A stretch of DNA of 63,677 nucleotides, counting the filler, from Stramenopiles sp. TOSAG23-3 (lineage: Eukaryota), in assembly GCA_900128585.1 (NCBI GenBank). It is 21 parts of 21 records of this genome, joined end to end, with 100 filler letters (N's around TTAATTAATTAA, not from the genome) between each part and the next. Parts side by side here need not be neighbours in the genome. Positions count along the whole stretch, not along the records: positions 15,257 to 18,196 come from LT644506.1; 20 more parts are not named here. One strand, 5' to 3'. The notes below the pieces were generated by a model. That model worked only from the letters and a program-made list of their open reading frames with translations. It made no database searches and was not told where the DNA came from. The translations under genes and the position numbers were made by a program. How positions within the stretch are numbered: the stretch's first letter is position 1; every line of letters begins with the position of its first letter. This document shows positions 15,257-57,626 of the stretch, one piece after another.

Positions 15257-15335
15257 GGGATAATAATAATAAAGCATGATTTATGACACCAAATGGTGTC
15301 AAAAGATCGTCCAATATAAAAAGCACGGAACGCAA
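15257..15335 (+). repeat. Left 79-bp inverted repeat, contains palindrome TGACACCA-aa-TGGTGTCA
   Basis: Exact reverse complement of 18118-18196. Confidence 0.95.
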
Positions 15336-15386
15336 AAACAAATCACTGCATTTGATCAATATATCGTTTAATTTTAACAATTGAAG

Positions 15387-16808
15387 ATGTCGTATGATGG
15401 TATTATCACCCAAGGAAAGGAGTACGCACGCAGGCGCAACTTCACTCCTGATAATATAAACTGGAAGCGATGGAGTCAAAGAAACTTCGAGTATAATAAC
15501 TCAAGGAGATATGCCGGCGATGGCTTTCTAATCAGAGTGCTTGGAAAACGCAAATTTTACCATCTTAGCACATATCCAAATGATGATGCATTCAACAGTT
15601 TGACGGAGTCCATGAATAACCCACGGTCAACGAGCTATGTGAACTCTGCATCAAAGCGGTGTGACCAATGTGGGAAACCATTCCGCCCTGTTGCCGAACA
15701 GGAGCTATGTACGTTGTGTCTTGTTAAGGCTAATAAAGATGCTCAATCTCGTGCAGCCATTAATAGCAAAGAGGCAAAGGATAAGGCAAAGGAAGTGACC
15801 TTGCTTAGATCCAAATTAAGTGAATTGAACGAAGTTTCTAACAATCTTGCACTCAAAGTTGAGGAGTTTGAAGCAAAAGCGAATGAAAATGAGAGATTAT
15901 ATCTACAGGCATCACAGAATGGTAAAACGCTGTGTGCAGAGATAAATGGGAAAAACAAAGATGTGCTAAATTACAGAAATATCGTCCAGCAGTTGGCAAA
16001 GATAAATGTTAACTTGGACAGATGTGTAGCTACTCATCAACAATTAAGTGTAGATCTGTTGAAGCTTAAAAGTGAACAGGCGACGATAAAAGATTTGATA
16101 CATAATTGTGAAAACGAATTGCAATCTATGCGGCCAAAGAATGTATCTATAATTACAATACTGCGCGAACAAATAGCAGAGGACGTATTGAATTTTTTTA
16201 GGTGTGCATTTGGAACTACAACCCCCAATCGAAATGTGCGGCATAATTACCTAGAAAAAGTGCTGCGTGAATACCCGAAGAAGTTGCATGGCCTTTTGGC
16301 TTCAACAGGACTTGTGATTGAAACAGAGTCCAAACACAATCTTCAATTCCCACCCTTGTCGTCGTTTCTATCAATGTTCGAAGATAACGTATCTTCACAA
16401 ATAAAAGCACTTTCAAATTTTGGTATGTATATCAATGAAGAAACAGATAAAGTTAGTGTGGGGCATATGGCCAATTACGATATTTATGATTTAATTGCGC
16501 AAAAAGATGAGATCGTGGATGGTGAAATACCTGCATGCTATCGTATTGAGCGGGAGACACTTGACTTGTGGAAGCGCATTTCGAAGAAACATTTGGCGTC
16601 AAAAGTGATTGAACACTTGTTTGCAATCGATTTCTTGACAAAGTATAAGCGCATCACTCATGCAAGAATCATGCTCATTGAAAAAACTTATGGTGTCGAA
16701 ATGCTGATTGAGGTGAAAATGAAATCATTCAGGAAAATAGGTGGAAAAATGCAGCAGGACAAAGACCTTAAAACTTGGCAAAAATTGACATCAGAATCAT
16801 TCGTATAA
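15387..16808 (+). CDS. Orphan protein with CxxC-x12-CxxC zinc ribbon and coiled coil
   Basis: 473-codon open frame from ATG; CDQC...CTLC; heptad region; no family recognised. Confidence 0.7.
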   Translation: MSYDGIITQGKEYARRRNFTPDNINWKRWSQRNFEYNNSRRYAGDGFLIRVLGKRKFYHLSTYPNDDAFNSLTESMNNPRSTSYVNSASKRCDQCGKPFRPVAEQELCTLCLVKANKDAQSRAAINSKEAKDKAKEVTLLRSKLSELNEVSNNLALKVEEFEAKANENERLYLQASQNGKTLCAEINGKNKDVLNYRNIVQQLAKINVNLDRCVATHQQLSVDLLKLKSEQATIKDLIHNCENELQSMRPKNVSIITILREQIAEDVLNFFRCAFGTTTPNRNVRHNYLEKVLREYPKKLHGLLASTGLVIETESKHNLQFPPLSSFLSMFEDNVSSQIKALSNFGMYINEETDKVSVGHMANYDIYDLIAQKDEIVDGEIPACYRIERETLDLWKRISKKHLASKVIEHLFAIDFLTKYKRITHARIMLIEKTYGVEMLIEVKMKSFRKIGGKMQQDKDLKTWQKLTSESFV

Positions 16809-16824
16809 CATATTCTGTAATTAA

Positions 16825-16849
16825 AACAAGAAAATTGGCTGTTATTTAA
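16825..16849 (+). repeat. Core of dispersed 3'-associated element
   Basis: aacaagaaaattggctgttatttaa, 16 nt after the stop at 16808. Confidence 0.85.
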
Positions 16850-16997
16850 TTATTTGAAACAAAATTTTATTACCATAACAATTTCCTTGCGCGGGCCGCG
16901 TCCAACATCGCCCTGTGTTCGCGCTCAAGCTTGGACACCGTGTCGTGGACTTCGCCGTGGGCACCTTCAATCTCTTCCGCGTAACTCTGGAGCTCAG

Positions 16998-17213
16998 CAC
17001 GCAGTTCTGCTGCGCGTGCACCAGCTCGGGCACCTGCCTCTGCACCGCTTCGACGACGCTCGGATGGGAATGGCCCGTGCTCAGCGCCCCGATACCAGAG
17101 GTCATGTCCAAGTACTGCGTGCCGTCCGTGCCACGCAACCAGCAGCCGCGCTCCTTGTGCGCCACGATGCGGTTCAAGTGCGTCTTGAGGGGCGCCGACG
17201 CGCCGCGCACGCC
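16998..17213 (-). pseudogene. N-terminal fragment of class-III PLP aminotransferase (GabT/ArgD-like) within a GC-rich insert
   Basis: RGCWLRGTDGTQYLDMTSGIGALSTGHSHPSVVEAVQRQ matches the class-III N-terminal signature; only about 70 aa present. Confidence 0.8.
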
Positions 17214-17594
17214 GCCCGACGACTTCCGCGGGCAAGTCGTAGCCCATGTCGGCGGTGCCCTGCGCCCGCACCGCGACCTGCGCCGCACCGTTCATCTGCG
17301 AGAGCGCGTCGGCGCGGTCTTCGTAGTCGAGCGCGCTGAAGGCGTGCAGAAAGGCGGGCCGAAACCAGACGCGCACGCAGGCTCGCCCGAGCGCGTCGGC
17401 CGCGAACACGTTCGTGCAAGAGCGCCAGCTCCGCCTGCGGCCGGCCGGCGCGCAGCTCGAGCAGCACGAGCAGCCAAGATGCGAGAATGGCGCGCCACAA
17501 TAACTAAACAAATTTTAATTTGAAACAGTTATCCCCTTCATAAAAATCGGTTTTGTAAGTTTTTGTGATCTTGATAATATTTTTTTTACTACTG

Positions 17595-18196
17595 ATGGGA
17601 TTACAAAGGTCCCGTAAAGCAGGGAAGCAAAAAGGGTTACCAGAAACAGAGAAAGGAATGACAGCTATATTTTCCGCAATATATTTGCTGACTATATATA
17701 CTAGAGATCTTGTATACTTCATGAGTTTGTCGTCTGGTCCTGAAAACGAAACTGCAGACGAAAAAAAAATACGATTGAAAGCAGTAGCAGCTGGATACCG
17801 TAAAGCGGCCATCAAAATAGAGTTTTTGCAAAGTTTTTGTTTTCCGGATCTATTCCGACCGTATGACCTCATTGCAACAACTGTTGGACCTGATGTGATG
17901 GATAACTTAGTGTCACATGGGTTCTTATTGGGGGAGGTTGGTTTATTAGAAATAATGGAGTCATACCACAAATACGTTAAAACATTACCAGTGTTTAAAA
18001 CAAATTCAAGGACAAAAACAAATGCTAGTTCGTGTATGGCAAAATTAGTAAAAATTCTCCTAACACATACATATGGTGAAGCGGTAGACCCTCAACCCTT
18101 GAAGAAAACACGATCTGTTGCGTTCCGTGCTTTTTATATTGGACGATCTTTTGACACCATTTGGTGTCATAAATCATGCTTTATTATTATTATCCC
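17595..18196 (+). CDS. Orphan ORF running into the right inverted repeat; possible transposase C-terminal fragment
   Basis: Open frame of about 200 codons; RPYDLI...GPDVM...LLGEVGLLEIMESYHKYVK. Confidence 0.45.
18118..18196 (-). repeat. Right 79-bp inverted repeat
   Basis: Exact reverse complement of 15257-15335. Confidence 0.95.
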
Positions 18197-36411: not shown

Positions 36412-37380
36412 GNNNNNNNNNNNNNNNNNNNNNNNNNNNNNNNNNNNNNNNNNNNNTTAATTAATTAANNNNNNNNNNNNNNNNNNNNNNNNNNNNNNNN
36501 NNNNNNNNNNNNGAGAAGAAAAGAAGAAGAGAGAAAAGAAGAAGAAGAGAGAAAAGAAGAAGAGAGAAAAGAGAAAAGAGAAGAGAAGAGAGAAGAGAGA
36601 AGAAAAGAAGAAGAGAGATAGATAGGGAATTAAATATCCTAAATAATAATCAATAAAAGTATAGGAATAAAGAAGGAAAGAAAGAAGTAATAAAATTTCA
36701 AAATATAATAAAAATATAAACATAATTTATTAGGCTAATAAGTATCTTATAATAAAATATGGAAGATATGAAGATAATAAAATAATAAAATTATTTAAAT
36801 ACGTATTATTTTATTGTATAATACATAATGAACACTATAATATAATAGTCTAATAATATATTTTATAGCTCTATTGTGTATGTCACAATGTCACAATTTA
36901 AATAAAAGGACTATTTTTATTAGTCTAATTAAAACCATCCTCCTCCCACTATTACCCTGGTGTATTAATAAATCGAAAACCACCCAATCGATCAGACCAT
37001 CATCCACCACCAAAAAAACATCATCATCCATCCTCTATCTCCTATCTCCTCCTCTATATAATAATATCTCTCTTTTTCTTCTCCTCTCTTCTCTTGTTTC
37101 TTTCTTTCTTTCTTTCTTCTTCTTTTTTTTTTTATTTATTATTATTATTTTTTTTTTATCAATCAAGTTTGTTTGTTAGTTATATTATTTATTTATTATT
37201 AATATATTTTATATAGTAGTCTCTTTCTTGGTATCAGAAGACTCTTTCAAGTTCTTCTTCTTCTTATTTTTATAAACACAACATCAAAGTTAGGTATTCA
37301 TTCTCTCACATGGTTTTCTTTGCTTGTTTGCATCCATTGAATATTTACTACTATAGAAACGAACGATATACGTGTTCCCC

Positions 37381-38904
37381 ATGCGCCTTCACCTCGAACG
37401 GCTAACGGTCGTGCTCTGTGGGGTTCTTTGGGCGTGTGCGTTTCCGTTGGGGGCAGACGCAAAGCTTGTGACTGGGAGTTTTGTACTGGACGGTGTCAGC
37501 ACGGAACATTTCATGGCCAAGTTTTCGTTCGGGATCGGCACTGGACGAATCAGTGGGCGATTCTGGGTAGAAAATGACTACAACGATCCGCGGGAGTTGG
37601 AACTGTATTACTTTTGCGACGATGAGTGGCCTGCGGCGCAGAAGGCCCTCACGTGCAGGGACAAGGTTGCACTTGCACGGGACCGGGACCGACTCGCGTT
37701 TGAAAAGCACGCGACCGCCGACGGCGAAAACGAGTTGGGAAAGCCGGCAAGGGTGTCGCAAGTGTTTCGTGTCAACAAAAACTTTACGATGCACATTCGC
37801 ACCCACTATTGGTACTTTATGATTGCCGACTGTACGCTGGAGGAATATTTTCACAAAGTGCCCAGAATATACTACAACCTTGAAATATTCAATGAGCCAG
37901 GCGACCACCACCTCCCGGCCGACGAGTTCGGAATGGCCCGGTTGCACACACTAAATGCGATGTACTTGGCGGGCTGCTTGGTTGCCATGGGCTACACGGT
38001 GATTCAGCGGATTACCAAGAGTTCCAGCATCCATATCGCCGTGCTCATGTTAGGGTCGGCGCTGCTATTGGGGCTGTTGTCCAGCATCTGCGAGCTTATC
38101 CACCTGGGAACGTACGAGAGCAACGGCATCGGATCAGCGTTCTGCGACACGCTGTCTGCCTTGTGCGAATCGTTGTGCGACTTCGTTGTCTCGTTTCTGC
38201 TCATATCCATTGCCTGCGGCTGGACGCTCAACTCGACATTGCCTATGTCCATGGCCACCTTCGGGTTTTCGAAGAAGCGCCAGGGCATCGTTGAGCTCAT
38301 TTTGTCTCAACTGCGCAACCCCAAAATGTTTTTCCGAAAGCAGAATGCGAAGTCGACGGGGTTATTATTGGGGTTGTTCATGTACCACGTGCTTTTGGTC
38401 ATTTGGGGCCGTCGGTACGGAGAAGAGTTCGATACCTTTCATGACTTCGAACACACCCCGGGGCGACTGCTTTTGCTGTTCCGGTGTTGCGCCGGTATTT
38501 TGTTTTTCTTTGCGTCCCACAGTACTCGAAAACGCCAAGGCGGGGTCGGAGAGATAGCATCCTTTCTGTTCATGTTCCAAATGGTAGGGGTCGGGTGGTT
38601 TTTTTCCCTTCCAGCAATGGTAGTCATAGCCTCGATAACAGCAGAGTATCTCCGGCACATGTTTATATCTGGGGGCACAATGTTTTTGCAAAATCTAGCA
38701 TGCAGTGGCTTTGTCTACCTTTTTCTTGGCGCAAACAACAGTTTGTTTTATCGGAGTTCTACGGCAGGGAAGCAGGGTTCTGTTGATTTGGATTCCGTGC
38801 CGAAAAGCAAATTTTCCTTGGGCATTTCGAACAGATCGAGCTTCGCACCGAGCATCAGCAACGTCTTGTCAAAGGTAAGGAAGACTCGCGTGCATGTCGA
38901 CTAA
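37381..38904 (+). CDS. GPR180/TMEM145-family 7TM protein
   Basis: Signal peptide, FMAKFSF, RTHYWYFMIADC, HLPADEFG, ISIACGWTL, seven TMs. Confidence 0.85.
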   Translation: MRLHLERLTVVLCGVLWACAFPLGADAKLVTGSFVLDGVSTEHFMAKFSFGIGTGRISGRFWVENDYNDPRELELYYFCDDEWPAAQKALTCRDKVALARDRDRLAFEKHATADGENELGKPARVSQVFRVNKNFTMHIRTHYWYFMIADCTLEEYFHKVPRIYYNLEIFNEPGDHHLPADEFGMARLHTLNAMYLAGCLVAMGYTVIQRITKSSSIHIAVLMLGSALLLGLLSSICELIHLGTYESNGIGSAFCDTLSALCESLCDFVVSFLLISIACGWTLNSTLPMSMATFGFSKKRQGIVELILSQLRNPKMFFRKQNAKSTGLLLGLFMYHVLLVIWGRRYGEEFDTFHDFEHTPGRLLLLFRCCAGILFFFASHSTRKRQGGVGEIASFLFMFQMVGVGWFFSLPAMVVIASITAEYLRHMFISGGTMFLQNLACSGFVYLFLGANNSLFYRSSTAGKQGSVDLDSVPKSKFSLGISNRSSFAPSISNVLSKVRKTRVHVD

Positions 38905-39545
38905 GTACAACATAATGGCAGAAATGCATTTCTCATTTCAAGTTAGTCTGCAGCACTCTTTGTGGACTCCACAACAAAATCTGAAATCCGTACTACGATG
39001 ATACGACGAAGTTGTTGTTGAAAGTACAAATTCTTCTATTATTAATATATATGTTGTTGGTCTATTTTGTTTAATGCCGTACCCTGTACAGGTGCCTGAT
39101 TAATTACTACTTTGTTTTTTTATTATAATAATTATTAAAAACTTTAATCAAGATTCCGTTATTTTATTTCACATAGAAACGGAGAGTTAAGGTATAAAGT
39201 ATATAGATCGAATCTTTATATAATACAAGAGTTACCAAAATATTGTTATGGTAAACGAACCTTACTAGTTGAAGAATTGAAGCGATTTGTGACGAGTAGT
39301 GCTACGTAGCAGTTCAACACATGAAAAAACAACTTCTTCTACTACAATAATAAGCAGTTGCTCAATAATTGCTAATTATGTTTACACTTACACACTTAAC
39401 GCTCATTTGTAACTAAGTGCAGCACGGCAGACCAAGGGGGGGGGNNNNNNNNNNNNNNNNNNNNNNNNNNNNNNNNNNNNNNNNNNNNTTAATTAATTAA
39501 NNNNNNNNNNNNNNNNNNNNNNNNNNNNNNNNNNNNNNNNNNNNT

Positions 39546-41915
39546 TTAAAAAAAGGAAGAGAGCCAATTGCTCGCTTTTTCCAAAAATGATAAGCCGTCC
39601 GAACCGCCTTCGACCTGTTCGGTATCCACCGCGTCGGAATTCTGACGCCTATGGGCACTAATTTCATCGTCGTATTTCTTCAGGCAATCGTCGTCTTTGC
39701 ACGCAAACCGCTTCACGTAAAGTGCCTGGATACGGCCGTCTGCGTGAGGGCGAGTGTGAGACCACATGGCCCCGCGCAATGTCTGTGCCGTGTGCCTTGC
39801 CAGGGCCAGCTGGGCATTCCTGGTGGCCGCGTCTAATTGCACGACGGCCTTGGCCTTTTTGCTTTCCGTGTTTCCGGACACGACTTTTGGTTCGTCTACG
39901 CGAACGGTCACGGAAGAGAGCGAATCCGGAAGCGAGGCTCGAAACGAGGCGCCGGCTTTGTCATTTAAAATAGTATTTGCAATCGACTCAGCCGTTTTCA
40001 GTGCTTTAACCCCATGGACGGTGATCAAAATTTTCAGATCTACACTGGGTTTCGAGGTCTGGGAATCGGGGACGTCGACGGGCCCGGCGGGGACGTCCAC
40101 GCCGGAGGTGCCGTTGCCGAGTAACTCGATAAATTCATCAAGCGCCGCGGGCGCAGAGGCCCCATTATCAACGGGCATCCCTGAACGGATATCTAATAAT
40201 TGCACGTTCCTATAGAACTTGGGGCTACCGGTCCACGCCGTCGCGATTGCCTTCGTAAAATTGACGGTGTGTTCCCGAAGCTTGCGCTCTGAAATACCCA
40301 CGAGTCGCATTCCCACGCTGACCGTCGCTTCCGTCGACGGTTTGCCGTCCGGGCCAATGTTGTCTCCAAGAACAGTCGGGGCCGGCGAATCCACTTTCGG
40401 TTCCGCGTCCGATTTTGCTTCTACTTCCAGTTCTGGGCCAGAGGCGCCGGTCGACGTTGCGCCTACACTTCCGGTGGCGCTGCCCCCTAACGAGCCAGTT
40501 GCCCCGGTGGACCCCACGCCCGTGGCGCCCGTGGACCCGGTGGTCCCCGTCTTGGCCATCTCCGCTTCCAAATCGGCCTTTTCTTTGGCTTTGCGTGCTT
40601 GGTCCTTCAGCAGTTTCGCTTCCTCCGCCTGGGTTTTCGCGTTTTCTTCTTTTTCCTTCAGCTCTGCAGCTCTATCGGCTTTGTCTTGTGCCTCTTCTTT
40701 CGCTTTGTCCTCCTCGTCCACCCCCGTGGCGCCGGTGCTACCGGTGGAACCAGTTGCCGCCGAACCAGTCCCAAGCTCAAGGAAGGAGTCCGCTACGCCG
40801 AATGCGGCATCCCCGCAGTCGGAGAATCGTACCGAAAATTTTCCTTGCTGTTCCTTGCAGCGGGCGATGCGCTCCTTAGTGTACGCCTCTTGCTGCGCTT
40901 TCAGCGCGGCGAGGGTCGATTTTCGTTCGCTTTCCTTTGCCAGCTGCTCCTTGTGAATTTTCTGCGCCTCTAGACTTTTCGCTCGTTCGCAGTCGGCTTC
41001 CGAGTTCCCTTTGGCCAAGCACATGTGCTCGATTGCCAGCAGCCTGAGTTTTGCGCGTTCGCAGTCGCCCGGGCTTCCCGCGAACGAGGAGCACTCACCG
41101 TCGAACAGAAACACGGGGTCGGCAAATTTCGTTGGGGGCGTTCCAGCAGGGGCATGGTGTGCTGGGCACACGCTGTTCACGCCCTTCGAGTGGAGCCAAT
41201 TCTGCCCGCAAGTCGGGCCAAACCGAGGTTGCACGGCGCCGCCTTCCAAGCACGCCCTCTCCGTGGCGCACCACCCACAAGCGGTCATTTTCAAGCACGA
41301 CCCGCAGTCCTTCGCGGCATCGCACTCGTCGGCATCACTCAACTTACTCTTCGCGCGTCGCAACGCGCCAACAACCCTTCGCAGGGTTTCGCACTGGGAA
41401 CCGGTGCAGGGCCTACCCCGTTCTTCGTGGAGCTGTTCCAGGCGCTCGGTCACTTTCTCTAGGTTTGCCTGCTTCCGCTTCGACAAGAAGTCTAAGTCGT
41501 CGTCGAGTTCCAGCCGGTCTAGGTACTGGTCGTGCTGCTCCGCGGTGTTTTTCTTTTGATGAGCACTGAGCTGCTGGACCCTTTGGTTCAGTTGCACGGT
41601 TTGCTTCTGTATCTCTTTCTGTAGGTTTGCCAAGAGCTCCTTCACTTTGTCACTGTGCGGGGCTTGCTGGACAACCTTCGGCGGCGCCGGTTTGACTGTT
41701 GGCTTCTTCGGCGGCGCCGGTTTTGCTGCTGGCTTCGGACGGATGACCTCGGTCTTCACCGCTGCAACCTTCGCCTTTGTGATCGACAGCCGTTCGTATA
41801 CATGTTCTGCGTCTTGGACAATGTCATTCGCATCCGTAAGGATCGGGTTCCGAACCTCGGTGGACGCGACGACTGCCAAGGTGCAAGCCAAGAAAAACGC
41901 TACCCTCCTGCTCAT
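39546..41915 (-). CDS. Secreted PSI-domain, coiled-coil and GATG-repeat protein
   Basis: Signal peptide MSRRVAFFLACTLAVVA; DCGSCL...CGWC....ACLEG (PSI); TGATG low complexity. Confidence 0.8.
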   Translation of the reverse strand: MSRRVAFFLACTLAVVASTEVRNPILTDANDIVQDAEHVYERLSITKAKVAAVKTEVIRPKPAAKPAPPKKPTVKPAPPKVVQQAPHSDKVKELLANLQKEIQKQTVQLNQRVQQLSAHQKKNTAEQHDQYLDRLELDDDLDFLSKRKQANLEKVTERLEQLHEERGRPCTGSQCETLRRVVGALRRAKSKLSDADECDAAKDCGSCLKMTACGWCATERACLEGGAVQPRFGPTCGQNWLHSKGVNSVCPAHHAPAGTPPTKFADPVFLFDGECSSFAGSPGDCERAKLRLLAIEHMCLAKGNSEADCERAKSLEAQKIHKEQLAKESERKSTLAALKAQQEAYTKERIARCKEQQGKFSVRFSDCGDAAFGVADSFLELGTGSAATGSTGSTGATGVDEEDKAKEEAQDKADRAAELKEKEENAKTQAEEAKLLKDQARKAKEKADLEAEMAKTGTTGSTGATGVGSTGATGSLGGSATGSVGATSTGASGPELEVEAKSDAEPKVDSPAPTVLGDNIGPDGKPSTEATVSVGMRLVGISERKLREHTVNFTKAIATAWTGSPKFYRNVQLLDIRSGMPVDNGASAPAALDEFIELLGNGTSGVDVPAGPVDVPDSQTSKPSVDLKILITVHGVKALKTAESIANTILNDKAGASFRASLPDSLSSVTVRVDEPKVVSGNTESKKAKAVVQLDAATRNAQLALARHTAQTLRGAMWSHTRPHADGRIQALYVKRFACKDDDCLKKYDDEISAHRRQNSDAVDTEQVEGGSDGLSFLEKASNWLSSFF

Positions 41916-42860
41916 GTTGAATACTTTCTTCTCCAGCACACTTACTAAACGCCAAGTATTCAATGAAAGGCACAACCACTGTTTCTTCCGGTTGTCATAA
42001 AACACGAGACGTGAAACCCCTTTCTTTCATTGATTCATTCTTTCAGGTTACCTGGCTTCCTTTCCATCCTTCGTGACTCCTTCGTGTTGCATCAAATGAG
42101 GTTTGCAAGCTGTGTTGTTTGTTAAAAAATCAAAATTAAAATCATGTTCAGACGTTGGTATTATTATTTAATGTATTTGTATTAATTAATAATACTTATT
42201 GTATATAGGACAAATAAGGTTACAATACTCCTTCCCTTTTACCTTTAAAAATTAATAGATATCAATTATATTACAAGTATACCAATTCATATTGTACGTA
42301 GATCTTTTATATGTATTAATTTAGCTATCAAAATAGAAGTAACTATATAAATTTTAATTTAAAAAAACAATTTGGGCTTCGAATACTAATTTATTAACTC
42401 AATAAGTATTCTATCTATCTATCTAATGAATACAACAATATTTATATAATTTGGAACCCCCCCCCCCCCCCCCCCCNNNNNNNNNNNNNNNNNNNNNNNN
42501 NNNNNNNNNNNNNNNNNNNNTTAATTAATTAANNNNNNNNNNNNNNNNNNNNNNNNNNNNNNNNNNNNNNNNNNNNCGTCAGGAAGACCCTTGCCAAGCT
42601 CTGCCCGAATCAGACGACGAACGGGATGGAGATCGGATGAACTGCCTGCCAGACTTTTGCAAGATCTATGAGCGGGATCTCGAGTACAAGGGAGCCTGGT
42701 AAGCTAGCATTGGACACAAACACGTGGTTTGATTCTCGGTACAGGCTGCGCGTCTCTTCCCCAAACAAACTTACAGTCGGGGAACGAAATGAGGATGTAA
42801 CGTTTTGTAAAATATAAAAAAGCGGCATTATGAGCACAATAATACAAGCGCGGTGCGGTG

Positions 42861-54332: not shown

Positions 54333-54707
54333 TTTTATTTGGGACACTCTATTATTAATACTCTTAAGAAATACTGTGAGATACATCCACGCTCTTCTTC
54401 TTTTCTGGCTTACAGACCCGCTCGTTGGTAGCCTGGGTGCCCCGGGAACGCTGGCCGCGAGTCGCTGGACTTGTCCCGCCCGCTAGTTCCCCAGCTAATA
54501 ATCCCGATTAAGACCGCTCGTAACACTCGTGACCCATCTATAATTTGCGAAACGTTAGAGTGTTTGAAGCGCCTAGTACGCTGCGGAGATCTGATCGGAN
54601 NNNNNNNNNNNNNNNNNNNNNNNNNNNNNNNNNNNNNNNNNNNTTAATTAATTAANNNNNNNNNNNNNNNNNNNNNNNNNNNNNNNNNNNNNNNNNNNNT
54701 GATGAGA

Positions 54708-54772
54708 TTCTTCTCTTCTTCTTCTTCTTCTTCTTCTTCTTCTTCTTCTTCTTCTTCTTCTTCTTCTTCTTC
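54708..54772. repeat. (CTT)n microsatellite near contig edge
   Basis: Direct reading of the sequence. Confidence 0.95.
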
Positions 54773-55075
54773 TTTCTTTTATCTTCTCTTCTTCTCTTCT
54801 TCTCTCCCTAAAAAAAAGAAGGAACGTATATTTTTGAGTTTTAATTACATATTTATCTTCCATTTGTATACATGTTAATTTATAAAAATGAACAGGTAGA
54901 AGCACACAGCCGGGAAGGTAAAAAGAATTAGTAAAAAGAATTAGTAAAAAGAGGACATTCATTTCTGTTGTTATTGCTCACGTTTTTTCTGTTTGTTTCC
55001 TCACTCACGCACGCACGCACGGACGCCACGCACGAACACCACACCCCACACGCTTAGTTTGTTCCACTCAATACC

Positions 55076-56242
55076 ATGTCCAATGAAGACGTAGTTGTCT
55101 GCGACAACGGGACTGGGTTTGTAAAGGCGGGGTTCGCATCGGAGCATTTCCCGCGCCACATGTTCCCGTCCATGGTAGGAAAGCCGACCCTGCGCGCAGA
55201 GGAAGCCGCCATCGGGGACATTGAGATCAAAGACGTCATGTGCGGCGACGAGGCCGCCGCGGTCCGCCAGGCCCTGGAGATAAGCTACCCGATCGACTGC
55301 GGGATTGTCCGCAACTGGGAGGACATGGAGAGCCTGTGGGACTACACCTTTTACGAGAAGATGAAGATTCAGCCGGAAGAGAAGAAGCTCATGCTCACCG
55401 AGGCCCCGCTCAACCCGAAAAAGAACAGGGAAAAAACCATCGAGATCATGTTCGAGAAGTACGGCTTCGAGGGCTGCCACCAGGCCATCCAAGCCATGCT
55501 CACCCTGTACGCCCAAGGGCTGCTCACCGGGGTCGTCGTCGATACCGGGGACGGGGTCACCCACGTGGTCCCGGTCTACGAGGGGTTCGTCCCCCCACAC
55601 CTGATCCGTCGCCTCGACGTCGCGGGGCGCCACATCACCAAGTACATGATCAAGCTGCTGTTGCTGCGGGGGTATGCGTTCAACCGGACCGCCGATTTTG
55701 AAACCGTGCGAAAGGTCAAGGAAGACCTGTGCTACGTCGCGAACGACATCAAGGAGGAGCGCCGGCTGGCGCTGGAGACGACCGTGCTGGTCAAAAAGTA
55801 CCGCCTCCCGGACGGGCGCGTGATCAAGGTAGGCCGTGAGCGGTTCGAAGCCCCAGAGGCAATGTTCTCCCCTAGCTTGATAGACGTGGAGGGCGACGGA
55901 ATGGCAGACATGGTGTACGAGATGATCCAAAAAGCCGACGTTGACTGCCGCTCAGATTTTTACAAGCACATTGTCCTGTCCGGGGGCTCTAGTATGTACC
56001 CCGGGCTGCCAACCCGCTTGGAGAGAGACATTCGCCAGCGGTATTTAGAAGGCGTTTTGCACGGGGACAAAAGTAGGTTGAATCGTTTGAAGCTGAGGAT
56101 AGAAGATCCCCCGAGACGAAGAAACATGGTCTTCCTGGGCGCCTCCGTCCTCGGCGACATCATGAGGGACCGGGAGGACTTTTGGATATCCAAGGACGAC
56201 TGGGACGAAATGGGCCCGTCCTGCCTGGATAGGCTCAGCTGA
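55076..56242 (+). CDS. ARP2: Actin-related protein 2 (Arp2/3 complex)
   Basis: [56 protein letters not shown] are Arp2-diagnostic. Confidence 0.97.
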
Positions 56243-56440
56243 AAAGGACAAGCCGCTCGTTCATCAAAGCTAATCTATTCGTAGTGTGCTGTAATTTTAT
56301 TATCGTATTTCCTGTGTACAAAGCAAGAGGGCAAATGCGTGTGGGGCGTGCGTGTGAAAAAATAATTTATATTGCATTTTACTACTGAAAACCTCGCTCG
56401 CAGCTCTCCCTCGTCATGACAATCTGCACGGAGTTATCGT

Positions 56441-57361
56441 TCAAAGCTTCGCGCCCATCTGCTTCAAATTCTTCAAAATGAACGTGAACGCGTCGCCCGC
56501 AATCTTTGGGTAGTCCGTGGGCCCGGTAAAGTTCTTGATGTTGTCCCACTGGGCATCAATGTCTTCTAGCTCCAGCCCTTTCCTCAAATCAAACCCAACG
56601 CCAGCCGACCGCTGGTACTTGACTTGCCCGATCCAGCCGCCCCCCGTCTCAAAGATGGAGCCGTTCTCCTTGCACTTCTCGCTCGCAAGGTACCCCACGA
56701 ATGGGGCAATAAACTCCGGCTTCAGGCCAGCCACCATCTCTGGGGTCATGATGGTCTCGGTCATTCGAGAGCCAGCGAACGGGGCAATCACGTTCGTGAA
56801 AATGTTCCGCTTCGCCCCCTCCTTCGACAAGGTATTGCAGAGCCCCACGACGGCCAGCTTCGCAGCCGAGTAGTTTGCCTGCCCAAAGTTCCCGAAAAGC
56901 CCTGCACTCGAGGTGATGAAGACGACGCGGCCGTACTTTTGCTCCCTCATGTAAGGCCACGCCGCACGCGTCGTCTTGTAAGCACCGGTCACGTGAACAT
57001 TCTGAACAAGCTCCCAGTCTTTGTCGGCCATCTTGTGAAAGCTTTTGTCGCGCAAGATTCCCGCGTTGTTGATCAGGATGTCTATCCTTCCGTACGCGTC
57101 CACCGCAGTCTTCACGATTCTTTCCCCGTCCGTGACGGAGTCGTAGTTGGCCGTGGCTTCCCCGCCCATGCGTTTGATTTCCGTGACAACATTGTCCGCC
57201 GGCCTGGACGAACCGGTCCCATCGCCACCGTCCATCGCGCCACCCAAATCGTTCACTACCACCTTTGCACCACGCGCCGCAAGAAACAGAGCGTACGCCC
57301 GCCCGATGCCGTTCCCCGCACCCGTTACTATCGCAACGCGACCGTCGTATCGTATCGCCAT
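56441..57361 (-). CDS. Peroxisomal (3R)-hydroxyacyl-CoA dehydrogenase (stand-alone MFE-2/HSD17B4 SDR domain)
   Basis: TGAGNGIG, VVVNDLGG, NNAGILRD, GNFGQANYSAAK; C-terminal PTS1 AKL. Confidence 0.93.
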   Translation of the reverse strand: MAIRYDGRVAIVTGAGNGIGRAYALFLAARGAKVVVNDLGGAMDGGDGTGSSRPADNVVTEIKRMGGEATANYDSVTDGERIVKTAVDAYGRIDILINNAGILRDKSFHKMADKDWELVQNVHVTGAYKTTRAAWPYMREQKYGRVVFITSSAGLFGNFGQANYSAAKLAVVGLCNTLSKEGAKRNIFTNVIAPFAGSRMTETIMTPEMVAGLKPEFIAPFVGYLASEKCKENGSIFETGGGWIGQVKYQRSAGVGFDLRKGLELEDIDAQWDNIKNFTGPTDYPKIAGDAFTFILKNLKQMGAKL

Positions 57362-57593
57362 GTTAACACTGCTGTCGTTCAAAGAGAGAGAGAAAGAATT
57401 ACCAAATGTATGCAATTTCTTAAATTATGGTTTGTTGAAATTGTTCTAAATTGTTATATATGATTTTAAAAAGTCATTTAAATGATAATCTTGGTATTGG
57501 TTAGACGACTGTTTGGTTCTTCTTCTTATATTTTGGCGGGCGGCGGTCGAATTAAAAATATTATTAAGAAGAAGAAGAAAAAAAAAGAAGAAG

Positions 57594-57626
<33 letters not shown>

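Follow-up and report, generated by a model that had tools for sequence, protein, structure and literature searches.

A 2.9-kb marine protist contig with exact inverted ends probably represents host DNA lying between two copies of a longer low-copy repeat

The window analysed in this study is a stretch of 63,677 nucleotides made up of 21 contigs of about 2.9 kb each, separated by N/TTAATTAATTAA spacers, and the contig under study occupies positions 15257-18196 (2,940 nt). In none of the other 20 contigs are the two ends complementary to each other over more than 3 nt. The first 79 nt of the contig under study (15257-15335) are the exact reverse complement of its last 79 nt (18118-18196), as a preliminary description of this DNA had stated and as sequence comparison confirmed. 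The other 20 contigs had no end 25-mer in common with any contig of the window, and an Rfam search of the whole window gave no matches. The interior of the contig is a patchwork in which an intact 473-aa gene with a short motif behind it is followed by a GC-rich relic block and a fragment of a second gene. Sequence data sets used for comparison were X1, which is the likely source run (about 5-6 Mb of contigs, with unitigs taken from a k=31 graph), and X2 and X3, which are metagenomes of a single study and whose contigs are of low depth (3-8x). Stretches without cover in X3 or in the data set X4 were excluded as evidence.

The intact gene, ORF1 (15387..16808, plus strand), belongs to an uncharacterised family that was recognised through its relatives and through structure prediction. 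It had been described as an orphan zinc-ribbon/coiled-coil ORF; the 473-aa reading frame is indeed present, but it is not an orphan, as relatives were found at 99% and 42% identity and 21 clusters belong to the family at E<=1e-3, of which about 8 are full length. One of these relatives, P0005, is encoded on a contig of 36,433 nt, and another, P0001, on a contig of 2,071 nt. ORF1 is predicted to have a beta/alpha domain at its N terminus and a conserved alpha/beta domain at its C terminus, together with a CxxC...CxxC zinc ribbon and an antiparallel coiled coil (approximately residues 106-250), and the AF2 model has a pLDDT of 87 (an earlier structure built from 3 sequences was unusable at a pLDDT of 50.6). 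When 19 family members were scanned, no Pfam or PHROG family was obtained at the curated level; ORF1 itself gave sub-threshold coiled-coil or zinc-ribbon rows only in Pfam and sub-threshold rows only in PHROGs, and a sequence-profile search of the PDB returned coiled-coil proteins only (best E 0.0011). A Foldseek comparison, which the preliminary description had suggested might reveal transposase, recombinase or viral folds, produced no match for ORF1 at E<=0.001 in PDB or BFVD; the VIA-align rows for ORF1 cover the coiled coil (106-250) only and barely touch the N- and C-terminal domains. The protein atlas held no usable match for the whole of ORF1, and the leads for residues 255-473 (0.83-0.85) were under chance level. 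A possible likeness between the N-terminal domain (three strands and a helix) and AP2/integrase-type DNA-binding domains was dropped, as Pfam did not support it. Taking both ORFs of the contig together, searches with Pfam and PHROG and with Foldseek against PDB and BFVD turned up no family or fold of a transposase or recombinase, and neither a tyrosine nor a serine recombinase was detected by Pfam or PHROG on the 2.9-kb contig. DNA loci encoding relatives of ORF1 or ORF2 were also sought: none was found in viral_contigs with ORF1, P0005 and P0006 as queries, none of 193 pattern matches to alignment A1 in metagenome_contigs was confirmed, and the same was true of the 24 pattern matches to P0005 in genome_contigs.

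Downstream of ORF1 lies a dispersed short repeat, motif M (16813..16859, core 16823-16849, plus strand), which starts 15 nt past the ORF1 stop codon. The core was found in 6 of the 21 contigs of the window, each time 15-226 nt after the stop codon of an ORF on the same strand, and the depth summed over its words comes to about 83,000 in X1 and 1,700-2,900 in X2-X4, with unrelated flanks. The X1 unitigs that carry it reach depths of 1,800-2,500, compared with 18-25 for the contig at 15257-18196. Motif M is an organism-wide 3' motif that is found downstream of genes. Some contigs have repeated M units with spacers of 3-32 nt. A literature search with the motif strings and a second box gave no match. 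Two possible identities of the motif were considered and rejected: a stable hairpin terminator had no folding support (z -0.15), and a CRISPR-like array does not fit inter-copy unitigs of 36-4,439 nt and copies that follow ORFs on separate contigs.

The GC-rich block reported in the preliminary description was borne out; it spans 614 nt (16884..17497, no strand assigned) at 69% GC between flanks of 36-38% GC. Inside it, on the minus strand, is a 65-codon relic of a class-III aminotransferase gene, derived from the N-terminal region (17013..17207; Pfam Aminotran_3, E 2.4e-14). The match covers profile positions 10-70 of 403 and amounts to about 44-64 codons, where the whole protein would have about 400-460 aa, and tblastn with 6 full-length bacterial homologues recovered only this stretch and no other part in any frame. 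An intact class-III aminotransferase gene was therefore rejected, the full PLP-dependent fold of about 400 aa being absent. The idea that the block is a recent piece of a sequenced prokaryote was also rejected, since 500 pattern matches yielded 153 confirmed relatives, and the best prokaryote identity among these was 57%, over a stretch of 44 aa. Nor is the block a chimera of the source sample alone, because both of its junctions recur in independent metagenome contigs of X2 or X3 (X3 rec19, X2 rec14 and X3 rec21). X2 and X3 have 34 other letters in place of 16884-16993.

The second reading frame, ORF2 (17565..18116, plus strand), is an internal gene fragment of 184 codons as judged from its family alignment, cut on the left by the GC-rich block and on the right by the terminal repeat. 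It was originally regarded as a second orphan ORF that reads into the right repeat. An ORF does run from 17565, but it is a fragment of a family whose only whole member found has 455 aa: residues 1-184 of ORF2 align without gaps to residues 178-361 of that protein, P0027, at 54% identity, and ORF2 also aligns to P0006 and P0030. A relative was found in a eukaryote proteome set, and no Pfam or PHROG family was obtained for ORF2 at the curated level. Three relatives run about 95 residues further, whereas the window turns into the repeat one to two bases after 18116; that the frame stays open through the repeat is due to the chance absence of a stop codon. The tail of the family is Cys-rich at its C-terminal end, as P0027, P0028 and P0030 show. 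A 384-nt contig of X2 carries 17863-18116 and then continues for 130 nt off the repeat, with the departure point at the end of the family homology, and we infer that this continuation is the uninterrupted ORF2-family gene. The 18117/18118 join is absent from X2, a data set that does have the left repeat. In X1 the unitig 16823-18147 crosses this join without a branch and no alternative continuation was seen.

The inverted ends are the inner 79 nt of a longer repeat, R, whose left copy lies at 15257..15335 (minus strand) and whose right copy lies at 18118..18196 (plus strand; X1 unitig rec8 and X3 rec23). The left copy has its inner edge at 15335/15336, with 51 nt between this edge and the ORF1 start codon downstream. 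Positions 1-79 of the X1 unitig rec8 (342 nt, depth 45.1) correspond to 18118-18196, and the unitig then extends beyond the contig by 263 nt or more. The unique unitigs of X1, 15306-16847 and 16823-18147, have depths of 18 and 24.8 (a sum of 42.8 compared with 45.1 for R), and both end 30 nt inside R, which fits a k=31 graph at a repeat with two contexts. The unique part of the contig is thus at single-copy depth relative to R in X1, where inverted copies of R of at least 342 nt bracket a 2.78-kb segment. X3 gave a comparable picture: its R unitig, rec23 (308 nt, depth 7.92), extends 229 nt past the contig end, the left unitig break is again at 15306 and 30 nt within the R edge, and the depths of the ORF1 side (3.4) and of a contig with a third context (about 4.5, obtained by arithmetic from the last depth bin) add up to about 7.9. 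In the contig with the third context, 255 nt or more of unrelated sequence abut R at the same edge (18117/18118); 17707-18098 is without cover in X3. In X2, contig rec9 spans 15257-15411 unbroken across the left edge and continues 61 nt leftward, at a depth of 5.2 compared with 4.7 for its neighbours. One sharp edge of R therefore has three contexts, namely upstream of ORF1 (X1, X2 and X3), inside ORF2 (X1) and next to a third sequence (X3). The copy number of R is low, about 2x in X1 and X3 and about 1x in X2, and the ends are accordingly not the edge of an unrelated high-copy repeat, an outcome that had been named as fatal to the original idea. Exact-pattern scans with a 44-nt stretch of R gave no matches in viral_contigs or in metagenome_contigs.

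Each 79-nt end also contains the 18-bp dyad noted at the outset, TGACACCA-AA-TGGTGTCA, which lies at 15284..15301 (no strand assigned), inside R and 34 nt from the inner edge, with its mirror at 18152-18169. Dyads with 8-nt arms and a loop of at most 6 nt number 34 in 61,677 nt when overlapping matches are counted, so that about 0.04 would be expected per 79 nt. Folding of the left copy gave a z of -2.7, with 1 shuffle in 200 folding equally well; the right copy had a z of -1.8, with 11 such shuffles in 200. The same arm position is changed in both metagenomes, by 15298 G>A in X2 and by 18155 C>T in X3. A dyad with 8+8 arms is only mildly unusual.

Since R runs on past the contig end at about double depth, the 79 nt are most likely the clip point of a collapsed, longer, two-copy inverted repeat, as the preliminary description had itself cautioned when it noted that the true repeat might be longer. 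The number 79 is a standard or default k step of one widely used metagenome assembler, and it would be the k of the assembler here. The two contig ends are reverse complements of each other because the two copies of R are inverted, and with R collapsed into one graph node with k-length overlaps, the contig ends would be neither the ends of an element nor the ends of a molecule. The underlying inverted repeat is real biology in the reads and no artefact. The other possibility raised originally, a unique segment between two longer inverted repeats, agrees with the X1 data.

The explanation favoured here is that the supposed 79-nt TIR is the clipped inner edge of the longer low-copy R (at least 342 nt), which probably stands inverted on both sides of a 2.78-kb stretch. 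The assembler would have merged the two copies into a single node of the graph, with each end of the contig keeping an overlap of k length (79 nt). R itself would be a unit of its own that ends sharply at a natural boundary. The left copy sits 51 nt upstream of the intact ORF1, and the right copy is fused, within the reading frame, to part of an ORF2-family gene. One copy, the one beside ORF1, may be shared between populations, and the second may vary in position. On this evidence R is probably mobile, and it is most likely the end of a low-copy mobile element; a recombination-prone duplicated segment seems less likely. The left copy lies near the ORF1 start in all of X1, X2 and X3, and an arrangement in which R and ORF1 belong together would fit as well. 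The contig falls to the eukaryotic genome because motif M is common to other contigs, because ORF2 has a eukaryote relative and because the contigs adjoining it in the window carry eukaryotic domains. It is therefore reasonable, if not certain, to regard 15257-18196 as host chromosomal DNA of a marine protist between two R copies, and not as the element itself. A bolder version of this explanation is a long shot: R would be the terminus of an active low-copy DNA transposon, with a fixed copy at ORF1 and a second copy at sites that vary between populations, in the source cell inverted inside the neighbouring gene, and the composite-like unit would be able to mobilise or invert the 2.8-kb segment, with ORF1, from a conserved family that is confidently modelled yet unclassified (zinc ribbon, coiled-coil hairpin and a new alpha/beta domain), perhaps as its own DNA-handling protein.

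One alternative to host DNA is that the segment is the inside of a larger element that has R as its long inverted repeats, either a Pack-MULE-like transposon that has acquired gene fragments or an extrachromosomal plasmid or virus-like element of the 2-micron type, whose unique segment could flip by recombination between the repeats. Inverted copies of R flanking the segment at about twice its depth in X1 are what such an element would present, as are a subterminal dyad in R, a left copy 51 nt upstream of ORF1 in X1, X2 and X3 that resembles a promoter carrier, and an interior mosaic of an intact gene and two gene fragments like those of fragment-capturing elements. This alternative is nevertheless unlikely. 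The X2 segment has the left R but other sequence after 18116, and the right edge of R lies inside a conserved reading frame, which looks like an interruption and not like a designed boundary. Neither ORF1 nor ORF2 gave a transposase or recombinase signal with Pfam, PHROG or Foldseek, the unique part is single-copy in depth, and the 3' motif of ORF1 is common to 5 other contigs of the 21. A compact element, with the contig as a complete 2.9-kb DNA transposon, linear plasmid or virus-like genome with true 79-bp TIRs and the dyad as a candidate transposase or recombinase site, was the headline of the preliminary description, and it would explain the exact 79-nt inverted ends with their dyad and the fact that no other contig among the 21 has such ends. 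It fails because the repeat does not stop at the contig end, running past it by at least 263 nt in X1, 229 nt in X3 and 61 nt in X2. ORF2, moreover, is a fragment that the right copy of the repeat cuts, no transposase or polymerase was detected by Pfam or PHROG, and the dyad varies in nature. Such a compact element is highly improbable.

It could also be asked whether the 18117/18118 join was created during whole-genome amplification, with the displaced 3' end of ORF2 priming on the opposite strand 2.8 kb away, in which case R would occur once, upstream of ORF1. The geometry, an inverted join of sites 2.78 kb apart on one molecule, is right for such an event, and the join cuts a gene in mid-frame. 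X2, which is independent, lacks this join and has the left one, and X1 is small (about 5-6 Mb) with M unitigs at depths of 1,800-2,500 compared with 18-25 here. However, X3 branches at the identical edge of R with a third partner at about equal depth, a random breakpoint should miss natural boundaries, and the X1 unitig 16823-18147 passes the join unbranched. A chimera is accordingly doubtful, and two inverted copies of R in the source cell are the preferred reading.

The practical meaning of these results is a caution: when a short contig of a fragmented assembly has exact inverted ends of k-like length, they point to a collapsed inverted repeat and not to the boundary of an element, and such ends can be checked quickly against the unitigs of the source run. 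The locus is also a small, testable case of structural polymorphism in an uncultured marine protist. Both R, at a gene, and a short 3' motif show presence/absence variation, and a GC-rich gene relic is embedded in AT-rich DNA. Two conserved uncharacterised families of eukaryotic proteins, those of ORF1 and ORF2, are flagged as well. The finding is otherwise an ordinary one and touches no long-standing open question.

Several known systems resemble parts of this locus. The yeast 2-micron plasmid is an inverted-repeat replicon with flipping unique segments, and here too inverted repeats of several hundred nt enclose a unique 2-3 kb segment that encodes an uncharacterised coiled-coil protein. It differs in that no FLP-like tyrosine recombinase was detected here by Pfam or PHROG, the 3' motif of ORF1 is found on 5 other contigs of the 21, and X2 is without the second repeat copy. 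Pack-MULEs are DNA transposons with long TIRs that carry captured gene fragments. They share with this locus the long inverted repeats (at least 342 nt here) around a mosaic of gene fragments of differing composition, but here neither a MULE transposase nor a TSD was seen, the edge of the repeat itself cuts one of the gene fragments, and there is an allele that lacks the right repeat. Composite transposons are built around pairs of IS elements, as in Tn10 or Tn5, and the classical ones are bacterial. The locus is like a composite transposon in having two inverted copies around a 2.8-kb segment, and like transposable element insertion polymorphism of this general type in having one sharp edge next to three unrelated sequences, a site that is filled in one population but seems to be empty in another, and an insertion inside a coding frame. 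It differs from Tn10 and Tn5 in that the host is a eukaryote, and the likeness is one of the inner part of R and one of its edges. Multiple displacement amplification yields inverted chimeras, as described by Lasken & Stockwell (2007, PMC1855051). Such chimeras resemble this locus in the inverted join of sites a few kb apart that is missing from one independent sample, and differ from it in that the breakpoint here is a boundary also used in the independent X3 and has no competing continuation in X1. A further comparison is with the k-length overlaps that de Bruijn assembly leaves at collapsed repeats, where, as here, a repeat copy of fixed length is found on both ends of a unique contig and a separate repeat node of about double depth (X1 45.1 compared with 18 + 24.8) continues beyond it. 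The difference is that the inverted repeat at this locus is real biology, with 79 as the presumed k.

The contig at 15257-18196 is probably host DNA flanked by a discrete, low-copy repeat (R), one copy on each side in inverted orientation. The 79-nt "TIR" at its ends would be a clipped overlap with this longer repeat. The window holds 21 contigs of 2,924-2,957 nt, which are sorted by length and separated by N/TTAATTAATTAA/N spacers, and thus does not represent a single molecule. The first and last 79 nt of this 2,940-nt contig (15257-15335 and 18118-18196) are exact reverse complements, and terminal complementarity does not exceed 3 nt in any of the other 20. An 18-nt dyad (TGACACCA-AA-TGGTGTCA) lies inside R at 15284-15301, with its mirror copy at 18152-18169. 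The inverted ends and the internal dyad reported in the preliminary description are both confirmed. Across 61,677 nt of the window there are 34 dyads whose arms are 8 nt long and whose loops do not exceed 6 nt (overlapping hits counted), or about 0.04 expected per 79 nt. The 79-mer folds better than 199 shuffles out of 200 in one orientation, compared with 189 in the opposite one. The variants 15298 G>A (X2) and 18155 C>T (X3) fall at the same arm position after mirroring. By itself, the dyad is poor evidence of a protein site.

Part or more of the contig is present in 20 of the 22 listed public runs. The fraction of sampled contig words present was 0.99 in X1, which was flagged as the possible source, and 0.63 and 0.45 in X2 and X3, two marine metagenomes from one study with low-depth contigs. 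The contigs from X1-X4 (X4 being a seawater metagenome of another study) that align to this stretch are k=31 unitigs, which are informative on presence and joins rather than on molecule ends. In X1, the unique sequence is represented by unitigs covering 15306-16847 (depth 18) and 16823-18147 (depth 24.8), both of which end 30 nt within R. R itself appears as a 342-nt unitig whose positions 1-79 correspond to 18118-18196 and which extends 263 nt beyond the contig end; its depth of 45.1 is close to the 42.8 obtained by summing the unique unitigs. This is the pattern expected of a two-copy repeat whose copies are inverted and have been collapsed into a single graph node. Because R continues past the contig in this run, the contig ends are the point at which an assembler clipped 79 nt into R and not the ends of an element or molecule. 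The number 79 would be the assembler's k; it is a standard k step of a common metagenome assembler. Since a k=31 unitig spans the 18117/18118 join, that join is present in the X1 reads and was not invented by the assembler of the window. Two suggestions of the preliminary description, that the true repeat was longer and clipped at a k-mer size and that the contig was a unique segment between two longer inverted repeats, are therefore supported as regards R, and the 79 nt would reflect the k-mer size.

The edge of R was seen again in the other runs. X3 has the same start points as X1: 18118 for the R unitig (308 nt, depth 7.92) and 15306 for the unitig on the side of the 473-aa gene, ORF1 (depth 3.4). 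An additional X3 contig attaches 255 nt or more of unrelated sequence to R at the identical edge. The depth of this third partner is about 4.5 (last depth bin), and 3.4 plus 4.5 approximates 7.9. In X2, a 216-nt contig spans the left edge unbroken (15257-15411 plus 61 nt leftward) at a depth of 5.2, similar to its neighbours, and a 384-nt contig matches 17863-18116, leaves the window exactly at 18116 and continues for 130 nt that are not on R. For R past its inner 79 nt, and likewise for the continuation in X2 and the partner in X3, the data consist only of ranges or 30-letter stubs. The edge of R is natural and sharp and has three different neighbours across samples. R is present in about one copy per genome in X2 and about two in X1 and X3, and so is not the edge of a high-copy repeat.

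The interior is composite. The GC-rich block at 16884-17497 (614 nt) has 69% GC vs 36-38% in its flanks. At 17013-17207 its minus strand matches class-III aminotransferases, but only over profile positions 10-70 of 403 (Pfam E 2.4e-14). Six full-length bacterial homologues gave no other match in any frame (tblastn), and the best prokaryote identity of this stretch was 57% over 44 aa. The block is a gene relic. A chimera confined to the source sample was ruled out for the block, since each of its two junctions is also found in a contig of X2 or X3. In both of these runs its left 110 nt (16884-16993) are swapped for the same 34 letters, with the replacement boundary at 16994 close to the end of the Pfam match (~16991); tblastn matches end at 17013-17016. 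The recurrence of the junctions and this replacement show that the block is natural and polymorphic.

To its right lies ORF2, the most decisive part of the interior. Its residues 1-184 (17565-18116) align to a 455-aa relative over residues 178-361 of the latter, without gaps and at 54% identity, and also to two further relatives, one from a eukaryote proteome set. Three relatives run ~95 residues further into a Cys-rich tail where the window enters R 1-2 bases later, which indicates that ORF2 is an internal gene fragment. Its left cut by the GC-rich block is common to X2 and X3; its right cut by R is found in X1 only. The open frame into the right repeat does exist, but it is the read-through of a truncated family gene and not the orphan that had been proposed.

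ORF1 (15387-16808, 473 aa) is an intact gene with one relative 99% identical and another 42% identical, a copy of the latter sitting on a 36,433-nt contig. In a profile search against 1.84 billion representatives, 21 related clusters reached E<=1e-3, about 8 of them full length (456-514 aa), and the domain plan is retained at 24-44% identity among full-length relatives. An AlphaFold model from 19 sequences (pLDDT 87) has a beta/alpha domain at the N-terminus and a conserved alpha/beta domain at the C-terminus, together with a CxxC...CxxC ribbon and, at ~106-250, an antiparallel coiled coil. The ribbon and coiled coil described earlier are therefore supported, but not the orphan status of the gene. 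Five of the six single-base differences between X1 and X2/X3 are non-synonymous (S2P, T313K, A362V, C384R, D460E). A 473-nt contig in X4 is identical to 15714-16186, and the rest of the contig's unique sequence was not found there at 90% likeness or above. ORF1, or this segment of the gene, has a wider distribution than the remainder of the contig.

A short motif, M (16813-16859, core 16823-16849), starts 15 nt after the ORF1 stop. When up to 4 mismatches are allowed over 27 nt, its core, AAAACAAGAAAATTGGCTGTTATTTAA, is found on 6 of the 21 contigs, the other copies being at ~31677 (+), 54308 (-), 34960 (-), 21633 (-) and 1279 (-). In every case an ORF on the same strand stops 15-226 nt before the copy, one of these ORFs being only an open frame of 62 codons at the end of a contig, and four of the six copies are followed after 16-24 nt by a second conserved box (…ATGTACTGCGAACTGAACTC…). 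The summed word depth of M, in unrelated flanks, is ~83,000 in X1 and 1,700-2,900 in X2-X4, hundreds of times the depth of the contig, and some run contigs hold multiple units with 3-32-nt spacers. No Rfam match was found in the whole window, and a literature search on M found nothing. M could act as a signal at the 3' ends of genes, or could be a very small dispersed repeat. One X3 contig lacks exactly 16818-16846 (29 nt), most of the core, downstream of ORF1; this presence/absence polymorphism in nature is more consistent with a small insertion than with an essential signal. Pfam families were found in 8 of 10 long ORFs scanned on other contigs, including RabGAP-TBC, GPR180/TMEM145, protein kinase and PDZ. 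Together with the sharing of M and its run depths, these matches make it most likely that the contig is part of the eukaryotic genome from which its neighbours come, with ORF1 carrying that genome's usual 3' motif. It should be noted that the contig at 48641-51571 has 23% GC, compared with 37-54% in the other 20, and could derive from an organelle or from a different organism in the sample. The contigs at 36513-39444, 39545-42476 and 54700-57626 have ends in homopolymers of G9, C20, A30 or more, and several contigs start or end with AAG/GAA microsatellites; such ends may be artefacts of sequencing or assembly.

These data contradict the compact transposon or linear element with 79-bp TIRs that headed the preliminary description, since run contigs extend over and past both ends; a complete element of this kind is extremely improbable. 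The segment could also lie inside an element with long TIRs, or in a replicon with inverted repeats that is able to flip; the mosaic interior and the constant 51 nt between left R and the ORF1 start in X1, X2 and X3 speak for this. However, the X2 allele, the cutting of ORF2 mid-frame by R and the lack of a recombinase or transposase signal in ORF1 or ORF2 argue against it, and we consider it unlikely. An inverted amplification chimera in the source is quite unlikely: X3 has the identical boundary with another partner and X1 shows no competing continuation, although the join is not in X2 and its geometry agrees with that of the MDA chimeras described in PMC1855051.

Within the favoured reading of host DNA between inverted copies of R, R would most likely be the end of a low-copy mobile element, one copy being shared and one variable. 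This is suggested by the same sharp edge with three unrelated neighbours and by the ORF2 frame, which R cuts in one population and which continues into other sequence in another (X2). A recombination-prone segmental duplicate would be a weaker alternative. The end structure of the contig is the familiar assembly-graph overlap at a collapsed repeat. In biological terms, R resembles a transposable-element insertion polymorphism, and its inverted copies may bracket host DNA much as in composite transposons.
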